From a virus (taxonomy: Duplodnaviria > Heunggongvirae > Uroviricota > Caudoviricetes): a stretch of DNA of 5,861 bases. A program made the translations under genes and the position numbers. The notes under the pieces are model-generated. The model was not told the origin of the DNA. It made no database searches and was given only the letters and a program-made list of their open reading frames with translations. The stretch lies in the IMG/VR virus record IMGVR_UViG_3300029711_000171, positions 1 to 5,861 of that record; one strand, 5' to 3'. Numbering within the stretch: the first letter of the stretch is position 1; every line of letters begins with the position of its first letter. Positions 1-5,861 of this stretch are shown in pieces.

Positions 1-181
1 GTGGGTATCCACAGAAGGTCGACTGTCAGCCTCAACCTTAACCCGCGTGCGCTGAGCCGCATTCACCACAACGCTAAGGATTCTCTCAGGTTGAAAATAC
101 TTAGCTGTTATGTGCCTGTCTTTTCACCACTTCAGGCTCGGTGGTATCCTTTTAAGCCCGTATACATAAAAGGAAAATCAA

Positions 182-427
182 ATGACTTTTGATGAAAAAG
201 AACTTGATAATGCAATTAATAAAATCATCGTAACGTCGCTCTTTTCCTGTCTCAGCGACACTCAGCAAAAACAGTTCTACGAATCGGCTTTCAACATGAT
301 CGAGCGTTGTTGTTTCTGCGATGCCGACGAGTTACCTGAAAAAATCAGGAAACAGTTGGCTGATGCTCTTCGAGTGCGACTTTCTGACCAATTTTCTGAA
401 ATGTACTCTCCGAATTTGGACAAATAG
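182..427 (+). CDS. Hypothetical small protein (81 aa), no recognisable domain
   Basis: ORF with ATG at 182 preceded by AAGGA (170..174) at about 7 nt spacing; the translation looks protein-like. Its 3' end overlaps the convergent minus-strand ORF 345..620 by 83 bp, so one of the two may be spurious. Confidence 0.4.
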   Translation: MTFDEKELDNAINKIIVTSLFSCLSDTQQKQFYESAFNMIERCCFCDADELPEKIRKQLADALRVRLSDQFSEMYSPNLDK

Positions 428-620
428 AAAAAGGCCATTTCCATTCAGGGTCTGATGGAAAGACTTCAGCCTGTTCCAAAGCACGGCGTAAAGAGAATAC
501 AACTCCAGCCATAATCTGATGTTTCCCATTGGTCCAGCTATCGCCGCTCTGATCTACAGGAGCGGCTATGTCGCATGACCAAACGACTTCACCACTATTG
601 TTTAAAATCTGGACTTTCAT
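345..620 (-). CDS. Hypothetical protein (91 aa), second gene of the leftward operon
   Basis: Minus-strand ATG at 618..620 with a GGAGG Shine-Dalgarno (complement of 633..637) that lies inside the last codons of the upstream gene 629..850, a typical operon arrangement. No domain recognised. The C-terminal third overlaps plus-strand ORF 182..427. Confidence 0.45.
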   Translation of the reverse strand: MKVQILNNSGEVVWSCDIAAPVDQSGDSWTNGKHQIMAGVVFSLRRALEQAEVFPSDPEWKWPFSICPNSESTFQKIGQKVALEEHQPTVS

Positions 621-628
621 TTTGTTCT

Positions 629-850
629 TTAACCTCCAGATTTCCGCGCATCTAAAGGCGCATTCTCATTTGGTGTGAACCGAATAGTTGTGCTGCTATT
701 GATTAATGCCCCGACACACAAGACTACGCACTCAGAGCAGATAGCAACTTCATCTTTTCCGCCTTTGGCGATGATTTTTTTTGCCTGCAGCTCGTTTGCG
801 CCACAAAACGAGCATGTGAAATAACGGTTCATTTGCGCTCTCTTACACAT
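629..850 (-). CDS. Small ClpX-type C4 zinc-finger (ClpX zinc-binding-domain-like) protein; possible alternative start at the internal Met (ATG complement of 830..832)
   Basis: The translation contains CSFCG-x19-ICSECVVLC, which closely matches the N-terminal zinc-binding domain of ClpX as I recall it ([31 protein letters not shown]). The internal Met has an AGAGAG purine-rich stretch upstream; the first ATG has no clear SD. Confidence 0.65.
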   Translation of the reverse strand: MCKRAQMNRYFTCSFCGANELQAKKIIAKGGKDEVAICSECVVLCVGALINSSTTIRFTPNENAPLDARKSGG

Positions 851-930
851 AGTATTTAACGAATCATCCGGTCATTCATACGCCACCGGCGGCTACTTCG
901 TGGGCGTCCTGCCTGTTTGTTGTTTCTCTT

Positions 931-964
931 GGGTACATTATGTATCTCATAGGTACATTGTCAA
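931..964 (-). promoter_or_regulatory. PL-like sigma70 promoter candidate overlapped by two direct GGTACATT repeats (putative left operator)
   Basis: On the minus strand: -35 TTGACA (complement of 959..964), 16-bp spacer, -10 CATAAT (complement of 937..942). GGTACATT occurs at 932..939 and 952..959, 20 bp apart, overlapping the -10 and the -35/spacer. The GTACA core is shared with the palindromes between the repressor and cro. Confidence 0.45.
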
Positions 965-968
965 GTAT

Positions 969-990
969 AAAAAAACCTGCCGAAGCAGGT
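969..990 (-). terminator. Rho-independent terminator of the repressor transcript
   Basis: Minus strand reads ACCTGC-TTCG-GCAGGT followed by TTTTTT (stem 975..980 with 985..990, loop 981..984, T-run from the complement of 969..974), about 14 nt downstream of the repressor stop at 1004..1006. Confidence 0.6.
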
Positions 991-1003
991 TCATAAACAT
1001 TGA

Positions 1004-1678
1004 TTAGGCTTTGATTTTGTATCTTCTTGGTTTTCCTGAGAAAATCACAGTTCCAATTATAGAGCAATTACCGTTGATCTTAATGTAAGGCTCAGGCCAG
1101 TTTGGGTTTAACGCTTTGAGATAACGCTGTGTCCCATCTTCTATCAACCTTTTGAAGGTGGTTTCACCTGTATCGTGCATCAATGCAATAACGTCGTCAC
1201 CGTGGCAGGCAGGTACTTCAGGATCGACAAAAATCATGTCTCCCGGGCGGTACTCATCAATCATTGAATCACCTATCACCCGCAAGATATAAGTCATTTC
1301 CCCACAGGGTACAGGGCAGGGATACGTTTCTGCTGTGCTCAAATCAACCTCAGAATATCCAACTTCTTTCCATGCTCCGGCCTGTACCCATGATATGACA
1401 GGGACTAATGTGATTTGTTTATTAGTGATTGAAACATCAGGTTTTTTTGTGATGTTCGTTGTCTGGTGTTCTTGATCGAGCCATCCGACAGGCAGGTCGA
1501 AACATTTTTCGATGTGTCGTGCCATGCTGTCACCGATATTTTTAGTAGCACCATCTCCCATAAACCTGCTGGTCTGGGTTGGCTCGCGATCAATCATAGT
1601 GGCAAAGGAAGAATTCCCGCCAACACCATCTCTCAGTTTTCTGGCGTTAGACCGCCGGATGTCATGGATTGTTTTCAT
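1004..1678 (-). CDS. Phage CI/LexA-type repressor with N-terminal HTH and C-terminal S24 peptidase (autocleavage) domain
   Basis: 224-aa ORF. The C-terminal half has the S24 hallmarks: an Ala-Gly cleavage-site candidate (VQAGAW), a serine nucleophile in the GDSM motif and a lysine in TFKRL, at LexA/lambda CI-like spacing. The N-terminal 70 aa are basic with a helix-turn-helix character. Divergent from a Cro-like gene. Confidence 0.9.
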   Translation of the reverse strand: MKTIHDIRRSNARKLRDGVGGNSSFATMIDREPTQTSRFMGDGATKNIGDSMARHIEKCFDLPVGWLDQEHQTTNITKKPDVSITNKQITLVPVISWVQAGAWKEVGYSEVDLSTAETYPCPVPCGEMTYILRVIGDSMIDEYRPGDMIFVDPEVPACHGDDVIALMHDTGETTFKRLIEDGTQRYLKALNPNWPEPYIKINGNCSIIGTVIFSGKPRRYKIKA

Positions 1679-1694
1679 AACGAAATTAAAACCC

Positions 1695-1713
1695 TTGTAC
1701 CGTTAAGGTACAA
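1695..1713. promoter_or_regulatory. Operator-like perfect palindrome TTGTACC-GTTAA-GGTACAA
   Basis: Perfect 7-bp inverted repeat with a 5-bp spacer, 17 bp upstream of the repressor start codon, in the repressor/cro intergenic region. Confidence 0.5.
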
Positions 1714-1742
1714 GTATCTTGAAGGTTCATTTTAATCATGTA

Positions 1743-1765
1743 ATATGTACACTGGAGGTACATAT
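1743..1765. promoter_or_regulatory. Operator-like perfect palindrome ATATGTAC-ACTGGAG-GTACATAT overlapping the cro promoter and RBS
   Basis: Perfect 8-bp inverted repeat with a 7-bp spacer. It overlaps a candidate -10 (TAATAT, 1741..1746; candidate -35 TTGAAG, 1719..1724; 16-bp spacer) and the GGAGG SD of cro (1754..1758). The GTACA core is shared with 1695..1713 and with the repeats at 932..959. Confidence 0.5.
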
Positions 1766-1768
1766 TGT

Positions 1769-1978
1769 ATGAAAGCGTATTGGGACTCTTTAACCAAAGA
1801 ACAGCAGGGCGAGTTGGCCGGAAAAGTTGGCTCAACACCTGGCTACTTACGGCTGGTTTTCAATGGCTATAAAAAAGCCAGTTTTGTGCTGGCTAAAAAA
1901 CTTGAGCAATGCACGTCAGGTGCAATTACGAAATCTGACTTAAGACCGGATAAAGAAACCGATTATCGCTCATGGTGA
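1769..1978 (+). CDS. Cro/YdaS-like small HTH DNA-binding protein (lytic-side regulator)
   Basis: ATG at 1769 with GGAGG 10 nt upstream. The ORF track starts at 1745, but that upstream ATG lies inside the palindrome and has no SD. The translation has the small-HTH pattern and a GAITKSDLRPD motif like Cro/YdaS-family proteins. Divergent from the S24 repressor. Confidence 0.7.
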   Translation: MKAYWDSLTKEQQGELAGKVGSTPGYLRLVFNGYKKASFVLAKKLEQCTSGAITKSDLRPDKETDYRSW

Positions 1979-2353
1979 GACACTCTCCGTACTGGAGTTT
2001 GATGAACCCACCGGGAAGGATGTCCGCGAGCTGGGGTATCCCTACCAGATGAATCAGGATGAGTCCGTCAGACTTCTGGCGCATGTGGTGTCGAAATACA
2101 TTGTGCGGCTGGCGAAAGTGCCGCAAAGCTCTGTCGACCAGATGTCTCCGGCAGACCTGAATGCAGCGGCGTGGCTTGTGGCTGGTTTTTTCCTCCAGGC
2201 CTGACGGCTGAATACCTCACTGATCGCTTCTTTGACTGCGCCAGCTACTGGCGCATTAATCCCTTCGAATTGCTGAATATGCCGATCAGTGAAATTCCCT
2301 TGCTGGTCAGTCAGGCAAACAGGATAGAGCAGGAGAAACGCACACATGGCTGA
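1944..2353 (+). CDS. Tail assembly chaperone (lambda G/GT, P2 E/E+E' type) made by programmed -1 frameshift; apparently 5'-incomplete with no in-frame ATG/GTG/TTG before codon 36
   Basis: Zero-frame open reading 1944..2204 (stop TGA 2202..2204) and a -1 frame continuing to 2353, overlapping the tape measure start at 2346 by 8 nt. The slippery heptamer T TTT TTC (2186..2192) sits 10 nt before the zero-frame stop. Position immediately upstream of the tape measure gene is the conserved chaperone location. The first in-frame ATG is at 2049 and has no SD. Confidence 0.55.
2186..2192 (+). promoter_or_regulatory. Candidate -1 ribosomal frameshift slippery heptanucleotide T_TTT_TTC
   Basis: X XXY YYZ pattern in the zero frame (TTT 2187..2189, TTC 2190..2192). 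Slipping back 1 nt gives the FFPPGLTAEYL... extension that is open to 2353. Confidence 0.5.
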
Positions 2354-4178
2354 ATTTGAGCTTAAGGCGTTGATCACCGGTGTCGACAGGCTTTCTCCCG
2401 CGCTGTCGAAAATGCAAAAGAAAATCCGGGGATTTAAACGCCAGGCGGAAGAGGCGTCACAGGGTGGGCTGGCGCTTGGTGGCGGATTGGCAGCGGGGCT
2501 GACGCTTTCCCTGAAATCTTATGCCGATCAGGAAAACGCCGCTACCGGGCTGAAAGTCGCCATGATGGATGCGAACGGCGAGGTTGGAAAGAGCTTTCAG
2601 GACATCAATAAACTGGCTATTGGCCTGGGTAACCAGCTACCCGGTACAACGGCTGATTTCCAGAACATGATGCAGATGCTGGTGCGTCAGGGGATCCCGG
2701 CAGAAAACATTCTGGGTGGTGTGGGTAAAGCGACAGCTTATCTTGCGGTACAACTGAAAAAAACACCGGAAGCGGCTGCCGAGTTTGCCGCAAAGATGCA
2801 GGATGCTACCGGAACGGCCTCAGAAGACATGATGGGGCTGTTCGACACAATTCAGAAGGCGTTTTATCTGGGCGTTGACGACACCAACATGCTGTCATTC
2901 TTCACTAAAACCAGCTCTGTTCTGAAGATGGTGAATAAGGACGGTCTTCAGGCTGCACAGAGTCTTGCCCCCATCAGTGTCATGATGGATCAGATGGGGA
3001 TGAACGGGGAGTCGGCAGGTAATGCCCTGCGAAAAGTTATCCAGTCCGGATTAAGCGTTAAGAAAATCAGGGACGTCAATAAAATCATGGCCCGCCAGAA
3101 ACTCGGGGTACAGCTCGATTTTACTGATGGCAAAGGGAGTTTTGGCGGTCTTGATAACATGTTCGGGCAACTGGCAAAGCTGCGAAAACTGACCGACGTT
3201 AAGCGAACCGGTGTACTTAAGGCAATATTTGGTGATGATGCCGAAACCCTTCAGGTGGTCAATGCACTAATCGATAAAGGAAAGGATGGCTACGATCAGA
3301 TCCAGCAGAAGATGAATAAACAGGCCAGCCTGAATAAACGTGTTCAGGCACAGCTTGGTACGCTGTCCAACCTGTGGGAGGCAATGACAGGGACCGCAAC
3401 TAACGGCCTTGCGGCTATTGGCGGCGCATTTTCTGGTGACGCTAAAAATATCACGCAATGGCTGGGGGAGTTGGGGGAAAAATTCACGAAGTTTGCGGAT
3501 GAAAATCCCCGGGTTATTCGCGGCGTCGTCGGGCTTGCTGCCGGTCTTGCGATTCTGAAACTGGGATTGATGGGCGTGGGCAGTGCCATCAGTATTGTCA
3601 GCAGGATTATGTCGATGACGCCGATTGGCATGATTGCGACGGCGATTGCTCTGGCTGCGGGATTAATTATCACTAACTGGGATGTTGTCGGACCTTATTT
3701 TAAGAAGCTCTGGGAAACCATTGGTCCTTATTTTGAGGCTGGCTGGGAACTTCTGAAGAAGGTTTTTGCCTGGTCGCCGCTGGGGATGGTGATCAATAAC
3801 TGGGGACCGGTTGTTAAGTGGTTTCAGGATATGTGGGATAAGCTGAAGCCAATTATTGAGTGGTTTACCGACAGTTCCGGTGACACGGTCGATGCCATTA
3901 ACTCTGCGCAGTGGGGCGCGGGTGCTTATGATGCTTATGGGACGGGAATACCGGCGCGGGGATACACACCTTATCCGGCGGTAGATCTGGCTCAGTCAAA
4001 CAACGCCTCCGATGCCACAGGCCCGAATCCCTTCATGATTAACAAAGCTTCTGCGCCAAAAGTTGATGGTGAGATCAAGGTATCATTTATAAATATGCCA
4101 CCAGGTATGCGGGTTACGGAAACACGCTCCAGTGGCATTGATATAAATCACGATGTTGGCTATACCCGATTTTGGTAG
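2346..4178 (+). CDS. Phage tail tape measure protein (610 aa)
   Basis: ATG at 2346 with AGGAG (2331..2335) upstream. Long Ala/Gly/Gln/Met-rich, largely helical-looking N-terminal region, a hydrophobic membrane-like segment (VIRGVVGLAAGLAILKLGLMGVGSAISIV...IGMIATAIALAAGLII), then Trp-rich repeats (GPYFKKLWETIGPYFEAGWELL...NNWGPVVKWFQDMWDKL). Sits directly after the frameshifting chaperone. Confidence 0.88.
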   Translation: MAEFELKALITGVDRLSPALSKMQKKIRGFKRQAEEASQGGLALGGGLAAGLTLSLKSYADQENAATGLKVAMMDANGEVGKSFQDINKLAIGLGNQLPGTTADFQNMMQMLVRQGIPAENILGGVGKATAYLAVQLKKTPEAAAEFAAKMQDATGTASEDMMGLFDTIQKAFYLGVDDTNMLSFFTKTSSVLKMVNKDGLQAAQSLAPISVMMDQMGMNGESAGNALRKVIQSGLSVKKIRDVNKIMARQKLGVQLDFTDGKGSFGGLDNMFGQLAKLRKLTDVKRTGVLKAIFGDDAETLQVVNALIDKGKDGYDQIQQKMNKQASLNKRVQAQLGTLSNLWEAMTGTATNGLAAIGGAFSGDAKNITQWLGELGEKFTKFADENPRVIRGVVGLAAGLAILKLGLMGVGSAISIVSRIMSMTPIGMIATAIALAAGLIITNWDVVGPYFKKLWETIGPYFEAGWELLKKVFAWSPLGMVINNWGPVVKWFQDMWDKLKPIIEWFTDSSGDTVDAINSAQWGAGAYDAYGTGIPARGYTPYPAVDLAQSNNASDATGPNPFMINKASAPKVDGEIKVSFINMPPGMRVTETRSSGIDINHDVGYTRFW

Positions 4179-4206
4179 CCAGGATTCCCCTCACAGGTAT
4201 TGCTGG

Positions 4207-4234
4207 TTGTAAGTCATAAATAGAGTGATAGAAT
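4207..4234 (+). promoter_or_regulatory. Candidate sigma70 promoter for the moron gene
   Basis: -35 TTGTAA (4207..4212), 16-bp spacer, extended -10 TGaTAGAAT (4226..4234), about 35 bp upstream of the ATG at 4270. Confidence 0.35.
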
Positions 4235-4269
4235 TAATGCACATTTAGAAAAATGTTAATAGGCGAAAA

Positions 4270-4800
4270 ATGAAAGGCTATATCACAGCAAGTGTAATTC
4301 TTGGAGCAGCGGCTATTTTTTCATCTCTCATAATCTCTGGCAACATCTCCTTTAAAGATGAACATATTATTCAGTTATCTGGAGGAGCCATAAAACTTGG
4401 TGATGTTTATAAAGAAAATAAATTGATAAGTGCAAAGATTATTTTTCCAGATAATCAGGGTGAACAGATTCTTGTTGTCGACGGCAATCCTGAAAACTTT
4501 AAGGAGGATTTTCAGGAGAAATTAAATAAAGTAATAAAAACTTTAAATGCGTCAAAGAAAAAAGATGAAGAGAAAGTTAGCCTGGATAATTTAAGTGTTA
4601 TTGAAGAGTCTAAACTAGAGCTCGTTTCTGCGGTGCGTTACTCTGCTCAGTATGTTCCTATGTTTACTCTGACGCTGGACAAAAAAGAAATTACCATGCC
4701 TAAAAATACGGTAATATTTCCATTTGCCAGCGATGAAACAGCTAAGTATTTAAATGAACAACAGCAAAAGTATAAAGATTCGTTGTTTCTGACTCGCTAA
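4270..4800 (+). CDS. Hypothetical membrane-anchored or secreted protein (176 aa), moron inserted in the tail operon
   Basis: Clean ORF, markedly more AT-rich than the flanking tail genes by eye. N-terminal hydrophobic segment (SVILGAAAIFSSLIISG) without a lipobox cysteine; the rest is Lys/Glu/Asp-rich. Flanked by its own promoter candidate and a strong intrinsic terminator. Confidence 0.7.
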   Translation: MKGYITASVILGAAAIFSSLIISGNISFKDEHIIQLSGGAIKLGDVYKENKLISAKIIFPDNQGEQILVVDGNPENFKEDFQEKLNKVIKTLNASKKKDEEKVSLDNLSVIEESKLELVSAVRYSAQYVPMFTLTLDKKEITMPKNTVIFPFASDETAKYLNEQQQKYKDSLFLTR

Positions 4801-4818
4801 TTAATAAAATTCATTACA

Positions 4819-4851
4819 AGGCCACCTTCTAATAGGTGGCTTTTTTATTTT
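4819..4851 (+). terminator. Rho-independent terminator after the moron gene
   Basis: GCCACC (4821..4826), 8-nt loop, GGTGGC (4835..4840), then TTTTTTATTTT (4841..4851), about 20 nt after the stop codon at 4798..4800. Confidence 0.75.
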
Positions 4852-4861
4852 CGGAGTGTAT

Positions 4862-5861
4862 ATGACGTGGAAAGACAGGCTTCAGGATGCGTCATTTCGA
4901 GGTGTGCCGTTTAAGGTTGAAGAAGAAAGTGCGGGAACCGGCCGTCGTGTGGAAACACACGAATATCCGAACCGCGACAAACCCTATACCGAAGATCTGG
5001 GAAAAGTCACTTTCCGCCCGTCCATCACGGCTTATGTGGTGGGAGATGACTGCTTTGACCAGCGCGATCGCCTGATTGACGCGCTGAATAAACCCGGTCC
5101 CGGCACGCTTGTCCACCCGACATACGGTGAGTTGAAAGTCTGTGTTGACGGGGAAGTTCGGGTCAGCACATCGAAGAGTGAAGGGCGTATTGTCCGCTTT
5201 GACCTGAAGTTTGTCGAAGCGGGAGATCTCTCTTACCCCACATCAGGCGTGGCGACGGCGCAGACGCTGATGTCATCCTGTTCTGCACTGGATGACTGCA
5301 TCAGTGACAGCTTCAGCGGTTTCAGTATCGATGGCGTGGCGGATTTTGTGCAGAACGACGTTATCGGTAATGCCAGCACAATGCTTGGGTATGTTTCTGA
5401 TGCGATGAAAGTGGTGGATTCTGCCGTATCGGATGCCGCCAGGCTGTTGCAGGGTGATATCTCGGTACTTCTGCCGCCGCCATCGTCAGGCAAAAATTTC
5501 GTTGAGCAGGTGCAGAAAATGTGGCGTACCGGNNNNNNNNNNNNNNNNNNNNNNNNNNNNNNNNNNNCTTTCCGGTGTCAGCCTCGGCAGCGATCTGCAA
5601 CCGCGCGGCGTCTGGAAAACGGACAGTAAAACCACCGCCACGGCGACGCAGCAGCGTAACGTGGTTGCCAGCACCCTTCGTACGACCGCAATCAGCGAAG
5701 CGGCGTATGCCGTCATCCGATTGCCTGCGCCAACAACTTCCGCGGTGATGCAGAATGCCACAGTGGGGCAGGCAACAACACCTGCGCAGAGCACCGGTTG
5801 GCCTTCCGTCACGCATCCGGCACTGAACAATGCACCGGCGGTGAAAAACACGGTTGACCTG
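4862..5861 (+). CDS. Mu gpN-like DNA circulation protein (tail/baseplate component); 3' end beyond the window; interrupted by the N-run
   Basis: ATG at 4862 with GGAG (4853..4856) upstream. N-terminus MTWKDRLQDASFRGVPFKVEEE matches, from memory, the conserved N-terminal motif of the Mu N / DNA circulation protein family. An open frame resumes after the N-run in a different frame and stays open to 5861. Follows the tape measure as in Mu-type tail operons. Confidence 0.75.
5533..5567. other. Run of 35 N (assembly or scaffold gap)
   Basis: Literal n characters in the sequence, inside the gpN-like gene. Confidence 0.99.

Follow-up and report, generated by a model that had tools for sequence, protein, structure and literature searches.

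The window analyzed here is a stretch of 5,861 nucleotides from a Caudoviricetes virus (IMG/VR record IMGVR_UViG_3300029711_000171, positions 1 to 5,861). Judging from its sequence, positions 920-964 are probably (about 85%, in our estimate) the leftward early promoter (PL) and its operators (OL) in a lambdoid immunity region of the e14/SfV type. This promoter-operator is of small importance in itself, and it is not new in kind: the GenBank record of phage Ayreon already marks the promoter, and the genes to the left and right of the e14 repressor are co-induced by DNA damage. It does complete the regulatory map of a common immunity type, which is shared by e14, SfV, SfIV, and several Stx2c and cdt phages. 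The main interest lies in what follows the promoter. The predicted transcript opens with a structured leader RNA of 68 nucleotides (nt), which covaries, is unannotated in the records listed, stands behind at least 10 types of operator, and is present in Escherichia coli K-12 itself.

A leftward promoter beside the repressor's terminator

The promoter lies on the minus strand, beyond the end of a repressor gene that is read from the same strand:

1004-1678, minus strand: repressor gene cI (Peptidase_S24 domain; identity to YmfK/CohE of e14; 98% DNA identity to cI of SfV)
966-992, minus strand: intrinsic terminator of the repressor gene (terminator scan; also annotated in the SfV and Ayreon records)
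959-964, minus strand: -35 hexamer of PL, TTGACA (promoter scan), two bases beyond the T-run of the terminator
937-942, minus strand: -10 hexamer of PL, CATAAT (promoter scan), after a 16-bp spacer

The terminator comes directly after the stop codon of the repressor gene at 1004. It has a stem at 992-973 (GAACCTGC-TTCG-GCAGGTT) and a run of seven Ts at 972-966, and the terminator in SfV's GenBank record maps to 967-991 of the window. Next to it, on the 3' side of the repressor gene, is an outward-facing sigma-70 promoter, which is the first mark of an OL/PL region. With TTGACA-16-CATAAT, it matches the consensus at 11 of 12 positions and is the best sigma-70-like site within 1-2400. The "promoter" feature in Ayreon's record maps to 938-965 of the window, so it is the same promoter. 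From the spacing alone, the transcript is predicted to start at A930. A preliminary description of this DNA, made from its letters only, had placed a near-consensus minus-strand promoter (-35 at 964-959, 16 bp, -10 at 942-937) right after the repressor's intrinsic terminator, and we found both just as it described them.

Candidate operators of one type on both sides of the repressor gene

Two identical octamers, GGTACATT, lie over the promoter (at 932-939 and 952-959 on the plus strand, 20 bp apart). The preliminary description had drawn attention to them, and they are there; GGTACAT has a single further copy in the window, at 1757. We rejected the idea that the octamers form a direct-repeat operator, because the repeat is not significant and because the flanks complete 17-bp dyads that are in register with the sites between cI and cro (the OR sites). 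The octamers are better described as the conserved right halves of imperfect dyads of 17-19 bp.

The dyad is TGTACC-N5-GGTACA. If up to 2 mismatches are allowed, the window contains 5 sites, while 0.10 are expected (a 50-fold enrichment), and none of 200 shuffles reached 5. If up to 3 mismatches are allowed, there are 7 sites, with 1.4 expected. Four of the 5 stricter sites flank the repressor gene (921-937, 941-957, 1696-1712, and 1746-1762). Together with one weaker site, the candidate operators (dyads, so given without a strand) are:

920-938 (core 921-937): OL1, TTGTTTC-TCTTG-GGTACAT, 2 mismatches; candidate operator that holds the first GGTACATT
940-958 (core 941-957): OL2, ATGTATC-TCATA-GGTACAT, 1 mismatch; candidate operator that holds the second GGTACATT
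1695-1713 (core 1696-1712): OR3, TTGTACC-GTTAA-GGTACAA, 0 mismatches; adjoins the start of cI and overlaps the presumed promoter PRM
1712-1730 (core 1713-1729): OR2, AAGTATC-TTGAA-GGTTCAT, 3 mismatches, weak; overlaps TTGAAG, the -35 hexamer of the presumed promoter PR
1745-1763 (core 1746-1762): OR1, ATGTACA-CTGGA-GGTACAT, 1 mismatch; just upstream of cro

At PL, OL2 takes up the 16-bp spacer of the promoter, and OL1, whose center is 20 bp from that of OL2, covers the last bases of the -10 hexamer and also +1 to +10. On the right, OR1 overlaps the -10 hexamer of the presumed PR (TAATAT, 1741-1746) and its start. Of these elements, SfV's record marks the terminator and the OR region and neither PL nor OL. 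Its "putative operator region" maps to exactly 1695-1763, the same bounds that we derived for OR3 and OR1 together.

By their sequence, then, at least two dyads that overlap the promoter share a consensus with the sites between cI and cro, which is the second mark of an OL/PL region. The preliminary description had noticed a GTACA core that is common to the octamers and to palindromes beyond the repressor gene. The same dyad is indeed present on both sides of cI, but the right region has three sites, not two. The operator consensus (TGTAyC-N5-GGTACA, with two sites on the left and three on the right) could help to predict superinfection immunity groups.

The remaining dyad with up to 2 mismatches lies within the repressor's coding sequence, at 1297-1313 (TTTCCC-CACAG-GGTACA, 2 mismatches). 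Its right half is perfect.

Conservation of the promoter and operators

We aligned the cI-distal region from 8 sources: the window, e14, SfV, Ayreon, Hafnia phage yong2 (74% DNA identity), Edwardsiella phage EPP-1 (70% DNA identity, and 74% identity for the repressor protein), and the contigs L076 and L129. Both hexamers of PL are unchanged in all 8. No variation is seen in the T-run, in TTGACA, in ATGTACC, in the distal half-site G-TACAT, in the AAT with which the -10 hexamer ends, or in the opening bases of the second ATGTACC. The centers of both left dyads, of 5 bp each, are free to differ: on the minus strand, the center of OL2 reads TATGA, TTTGA, CATGA, CTTGA, ATTGA, CATGC, CCATA, or CTCAA. 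Fixed half-sites around drifting 5-bp centers are characteristic of operators that are bound by dimeric helix-turn-helix (HTH) proteins.

Some of the relatives have more regular sites than the window does. L076 and L129 have a perfect ATGTACC-N5-GGTACAT at OL2, and OL1 of EPP-1 is more symmetric (GTGTATC-TTATA-AGTACAT), with a distal half that is nearer to the dyad consensus. EPP-1 also retains three OR sites, with changed spacers. The deviant half-sites of OR2 are kept in SfV, Ayreon, yong2, and EPP-1.

In L064, a viral contig of the same immunity type, the unit ACACAATGTACCCCATGG is repeated in the PL region, upstream of the leader. This contig has three ATGTACC half-site units, at a spacing of about 21 bp, instead of two, and looks like a case of an expanded OL.

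An immunity region of the e14/SfV group

The repressor protein is identical to YmfK (CohE) of e14, a cryptic prophage of E. coli K-12 (224/224 residues). Its C-terminal part is a Peptidase_S24 domain (Pfam, E=1.5e-26) that matches the structures of lambda cI, UmuD, and LexA, and residues 1-76 at its N-terminus have a weak match to a phage repressor DNA-binding domain (5d50, E=0.0018). The residues for self-cleavage are present in the sequence: the Ala-Gly in VQAGAW, the Ser in GDSM, and the Lys in FKRL. Positions 300-1952, which include cI, cro, and orf33, have 98% DNA identity with Shigella flexneri phage SfV. Over cI and cro, identity is 95-99% to SfIV, PhiR29, PhiR49, phage 2H10, cdtI, Ayreon, and several Stx2c phages. 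With a near-identical repressor and cro and, by sequence, the same operators, the locus belongs to the e14/SfV immunity group.

Both e14 (ymfJ - ymfK/cohE - ymfT/croE) and SfV have the terminator, the PL hexamers, OL1, OL2, OR1-3, and the leader RNA as in the window. The PL region of e14 differs from the window's at a single base, which is within the spacer of OL2. In the Stx2c, cdtI, Ayreon, and 2H10 phages, the homology breaks off on the left at about 907, just outside OL1, so OL/PL-cI-OR-cro travels as a single module.

Expression data from e14 in K-12 agree with a leftward promoter that lies between ymfK and ymfJ and is controlled by the repressor, although they do not show its position. 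In the SOS response, ymfJ (the first gene to the left) and ymfM (on the right) rise together and late, with log2 changes after DNA damage of 4.05/4.83 and 4.00/4.77 (PMC11002266). In the authors' view, the delay arises because the CI-like repressor is cleaved slowly (PMC11002266). Also, intE-xisE-ymfH-ymfJ and ymfT-ymfL-ymfM are within one co-regulated iModulon (PMC12132413). The preliminary description had suggested that one repressor controls both outward promoters. The common dyad, the pattern of conservation, and the identity of the repressor to that of e14, where ymfJ and ymfM are co-induced, all support this suggestion.

Some observations weigh against our assignment of 920-964. When the window is shuffled by dinucleotides, 9% of the shuffles have an 11/12 promoter at some position and 84% have an 8-mer that recurs within 30 bp, so neither feature is significant by itself. 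The distal half-site of OL1 is poor (TGTTTC instead of TGTACC), and this site may be weak or half-occupied. Finally, the co-induction data are for e14 in K-12 and not for the window, and they do not locate the promoter.

The results from shuffling would fit with the promoter and the repeats being a chance resemblance, without function, in the 3' flank of the repressor gene. This is already contradicted by the comparisons of sequences: the hexamers are unchanged down to 70% DNA identity while adjoining bases differ, and the equivalent position is a promoter in dozens of unrelated immunity regions (see below). The 50-fold enrichment of the dyad and the promoter that Ayreon's record marks at the same bases also argue against chance, and we consider it extremely improbable.

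Another explanation is that the promoter is real but is not under the CI-type repressor, and that the GTAC sequences are kept for binding by Cro only, for the needs of the spacer or discriminator, or for some other factor. The poor dyad at OL1 would fit with this. There is also GTAC-rich sequence in the PL region of HK022, so the motif is not confined to this immunity type. However, fixed blocks of 6-7 bp with free 5-bp gaps, in register with the OR sites, are the pattern of dimeric HTH operators; two relatives have perfect dyads at OL2; and the left and right genes of e14 are induced with the same delayed kinetics. Control by something other than the repressor is very unlikely.

If 920-964 is PL/OL, then in the prophage, dimers of the CI-type repressor would bind OL1 and OL2. 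The spacing of 20 bp between centers would put both dimers on one face of the helix, where they could jointly and cooperatively exclude RNA polymerase. OR1 and OR2 would act likewise at PR, while OR3 overlaps the presumed PRM. DNA damage would activate RecA, and the repressor would cut itself at the Ala-Gly by means of its S24 domain. Both outward promoters would then fire. The leftward transcript would begin near A930 and would open with the 68-nt RNA, folded as a three-way junction (923-856), followed by an open reading frame (ORF) similar to the zinc finger of ClpX and an orf33-like ORF, without an N protein.

Comparison with lambda and the leftward genes

As in lambda, the window has an outward sigma-70 promoter 3' of the repressor gene, under several dyads that share the OR consensus. 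The repressor's self-cleaving S24 domain is also homologous to the C-terminal domain of lambda cI, and cleavage of the lambda type is stimulated by RecA. Unlike lambda, which has three OL sites, the window has two, and their consensus is TGTACC-N5-GGTACA, not the lambda 17-mer. Where lambda has the N leader, the window has the structured leader RNA. Some relatives of this RNA (in L033 and L115) are found behind lambda-like OL/PL regions and share lambda's CATCAGCAG start context.

The preliminary description had likened the region to lambda's arrangement of cI, terminator, OL/PL, and N. The likeness holds as far as the promoter, but the N part does not, as neither an N-like gene nor boxA or a nut site follows. 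Specifically, no N-like gene is among the window's leftward ORFs, according to their Pfam and PHROG matches; the window's minus strand has no boxA; and there is nothing like nutL after PL. SfV, SfIV, and SfII were reported to be without N, cII, and cIII (PMC3851460). The leftward ORFs of the window are:

629-850, minus strand: first leftward ORF, 73 amino acids (Pfam zf-C4_ClpX, E=1.4e-10; phrog_5259)
345-620, minus strand: second leftward ORF, 91 amino acids (phrog_3195, E=1.6e-62; homologue of SfV orf33)

The first of these, which is annotated in strain 14EC007, is essentially a lone C4 zinc finger of the ClpX type. From its sequence, its product is no antiterminator of the N type. In L030, L057, L061, and L119, too, the leader is followed by a similar ORF. 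The gene after the leader varies even within the immunity group: it is ymfJ in e14 and orf33 in SfV, while in the window it is the ClpX-zinc-finger ORF, and then the homologue of orf33.

A structured RNA at the start of the leftward transcript

The coordinates of the leader are:

856-923, minus strand: structured leader RNA of 68 nt, at the 5' end of the PL transcript (covariation, covariance model)

We aligned 87 distinct sequences of this element. They fold as a three-way junction with stems P1 (921-916/863-858), P3 (913-911/905-903), and P2 (889-885/872-868) around an invariant junction, GCCCACGAAGUAGCC. P3 is a short hairpin that does not vary, while the other two stems vary with their pairing preserved: P1 may be GCGAA/UUCGC, CCACC/GGUGG, UCAUC/GAUGA, or GGAAC/GUUCC, and P2 may be CCGGU/ACCGG, CCUGG/CCAGG, CUACC/GGUAG, or CCGAC/GUCGG, among others. 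Overall, 95% of the cells in the alignment are paired, compared to at most 43% if the partners are slid, and 10 of the 14 pairs have double changes. The covariation score is 0.556, compared to 0.138 in shuffles, and none of 500 shuffles did as well. In a covariance model, the window scores 88 bits and true members score at least 70 bits, while sequences that carry the core 16-mer by chance score at most 24 bits. Because the folding-energy z-scores are near zero (as they are for putL of phage HK022), it is only the covariation that carries the fold. We are nearly certain that the leader is a genuine structured RNA.

The leader is a widespread module. On its own, 860-924 matches otherwise unrelated phages at 85-97% identity. 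The carriers include ST64B, SfII, Yersinia phages YeP1 and YeP3, Pantoea phage AH07, a Klebsiella phage, Pectobacterium phage ZF40, Aeromonas phage pAEv1818, SPN3UB, and even PSTCR5, which is a T5-like phage of Providencia. In ST64B, ZF40, and pAEv1818, the leader is just downstream of unrelated repressor genes. Conversely, Ayreon, yong2, and EPP-1 share cI and OL/PL with the window and lack the leader, so it is a separate module. The core 15-mer is found in at least 120 viral contigs, and 104 extracted sites passed a filter for the element. The leader is also present in 1,738 of 5,426 complete E. coli genomes; in K-12, it is in e14, between ymfJ and ymfK. A scan of genome contigs with the 16-mer core was swamped by chance matches in GC-rich genomes, and its only true members were from Kosakonia, Leclercia, Xenorhabdus, and E. 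coli and in the loci L218 and L222.

In the phage records shown, the features under the leader are "none" or a hypothetical protein only, and among the 40 E. coli records listed, there is no annotation at the leader. In a scan of 1-2400 against Rfam 15, nothing overlapped 856-923 at E<=10, and Rfam had no match at the leader in six related loci (E<=1). A full-text search of a literature library for the invariant core sequence found no paper.

Rfam did find matches elsewhere in related loci. Further down their left operons are matches to STnc100, a family of prophage small RNAs (sRNAs), at 29-42 bits (the gathering score is 47), and e14 has a weak DicF-like match. In the Rfam scan of 1-2400 of the window, there was no match to STnc100 or DicF. 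The matches to STnc100, which are all below threshold, are:

L015, 2132-2355: STnc100 (Rfam)
L002, 1091-1209: STnc100 (Rfam)
L131 (e14), 1582-1803, near ymfH: STnc100 (Rfam)

The leader follows promoters of many types

Sigma-70 promoters with many types of operators, including lambda-like OL, are found at a fixed distance from the leader, on its minus-strand side. In 36 of 49 good promoters, the core of the leader is 28-31 nt away from where the -10 hexamer ends. This fixed distance is why we consider the leader to be the 5' end of PL transcripts. And since the distance is the same in dozens of other immunity types, it is independent support for the promoter that we identified in the window.

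We also considered if the leader might be read from the plus strand, as an antisense sRNA. The hints of this were a few G-T pairs and a weak terminator-like site on the plus strand at 900-916. We rejected the plus-strand reading, as the promoters at a fixed distance are on the minus-strand side and so is boxA, where it is present.

In 18 of 98 other contexts, the strand of the leader carries a canonical boxA (GCTCTTTAA(C/A)AA) at a distance of 9-31 nt downstream. None of the 98 has a boxA upstream, and there is one on the antisense strand. The loci with boxA include L015, L048, L104, L105, L064, and L005, among others, and phage PSTCR5. In most of them, boxA is preceded by a run of six As and by GCGCCCTACAGGACGC, a hairpin with better pairing on the opposite strand. 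The leader itself does not resemble boxA or boxB of nut sites or of rrn-type sites.

In 22 other contexts, we noticed a second motif, AAACGTTCCGC or ACGTTCTGACA, followed by a small hairpin with a loop of GAAAGA or GGCGAUAA, at 24-25 nt after the leader. These loci include L013, L016, L029, L043, and about 18 more; in L003, the motif is at 91 nt. Between two of the loci, the stem differs in a way that preserves pairing (GCCG/CGGC vs. GCGG/CUGC), and it looks similar to boxB. L021, L042, L113, and L123 have a similar motif upstream of the leader.

Possible roles of the leader

No N-like protein is encoded downstream of the leader in any context that we examined, and the first ORFs belong to more than 30 unrelated families. 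One possibility is that the promoter does not chiefly drive a long early-left operon, and that its main product is a short non-coding RNA, formed from the 68-nt leader, which might be a trans-acting sRNA or sponge, a 5' stabilizer, or a processing signal. This overlaps in part with our explanation of 920-964, as it needs the same promoter and operators. Besides the diversity of the downstream neighbors, it would account for the leader being far more conserved than any downstream gene and for its structure, with strong covariation. One group of loci has a hairpin and a U-rich tail within about 30 nt after the leader, and sRNAs from the PL regions of prophages are reported from pathogenic E. coli (PMC4104026). 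In the window, however, no terminator comes after the leader: the next ORF, which has a phage protein family of its own, begins 6-24 nt further on. Also, the genes of e14 out to intE are co-regulated with ymfJ, and the hairpin in other loci pairs better on the opposite strand (U-G there, instead of C-A on the leader's strand). A short RNA as the main product is unlikely.

The leader may also be compared with the put elements of phage HK022. These RNAs suppress downstream terminators independently of factors, and this is blocked by mutations in the zinc-binding domain of the beta' subunit of RNA polymerase. To our knowledge, put is the only RNA antiterminator of its type. Like the leader, putL is a structured RNA directly after PL (the two are of 63-68 nt), and it is also from a phage without N. 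The annotated start of putL is 15 nt after the -10 hexamer, and P1 of the leader starts about 10-12 nt after it. Yet put consists of two adjacent stem-loops, while the leader is a closed three-way junction.

We rejected homology between the leader and HK022 putL. BLAST found no match between the leader and the PL region of HK022, and the leader's covariance model had no match at E<=1 in the put loci of HK022 or O276. The put family was found in 21 phage records, and among the records listed, these do not overlap with those that have the leader. We also saw no second copy of the leader that would correspond to putR.

A put-like role in elongation is our leading guess, because the leader is at the nascent 5' end, is independent of any particular downstream protein, is frequently followed by boxA, and is found in phages without N. 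Tentatively, then, the leader could be a new class of cis-acting RNA that acts on RNA polymerase or on a complex with Nus factors and allows processive antitermination of the early left operon in lambdoid phages that lack N. In that case, it would do the work of HK022 put by means of a different, unrelated fold. Alternatively, it may be a 5' stabilizer or processing signal, a trans-acting sRNA, an antagonist of Rho, or a sensor of a ligand. If the leader does modify elongation, this would explain how distal early-left genes, such as xis and int, are expressed in lambdoid phages without N, and it would be a second and structurally unrelated example beside the put-type RNA antiterminator.

The rest of the window

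To the right of the repressor gene, the similarity to SfV and e14 ends within cro:

1769-1978, plus strand: cro of the e14 YmfT/CroE type (SfV homology; phrog_35, transcriptional repressor)

The homology to cro of SfV and e14 extends as far as 1952, and from 1951 on, the sequence is homologous to a phage tail assembly chaperone. Only codons 1 to about 61 of cro are native; unlike in SfV and e14, the gene is cut there, and its 3' end is replaced, at about 1951/1952, by sequence from the tail chaperone. This joins cro directly to a Mu-like tail module, with a fragment of the chaperone, the tape measure gene (2346-4178), and the gene for a DNA circulation protein (from 4862). The 1951/1952 junction is in none of the 5,426 complete E. 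coli genomes, and it is either a deletion in a prophage or a misassembly. There is a run of Ns at 5533-5567, inside the gene for the DNA circulation protein. This implies that the source is a scaffolded draft, which matters for the question of whether the 1951 junction is genuine.

Between the genes for the tape measure and the DNA circulation protein is an ORF of low GC content (4270-4800, plus strand, 176 amino acids). Its GC content is 33%, compared to about 50% in the flanks, and it has a hydrophobic segment near its N-terminus. Downstream of it, at about 4812-4850, is a terminator-like hairpin with a T-run. Going by the sequence, this arrangement looks like that of a moron. The ORF had no match in Pfam or PADLOC, and none of the small ORFs of the window matched a defense system in either resource.

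At the left end of the window, an ORF of 81 amino acids (182-427, plus strand; phrog_3311, E=3e-55) is on the opposite strand from the leftward genes, and it overlaps the end of the ORF at 345-620. A hairpin with a T-run is on the minus strand at about 470-425.

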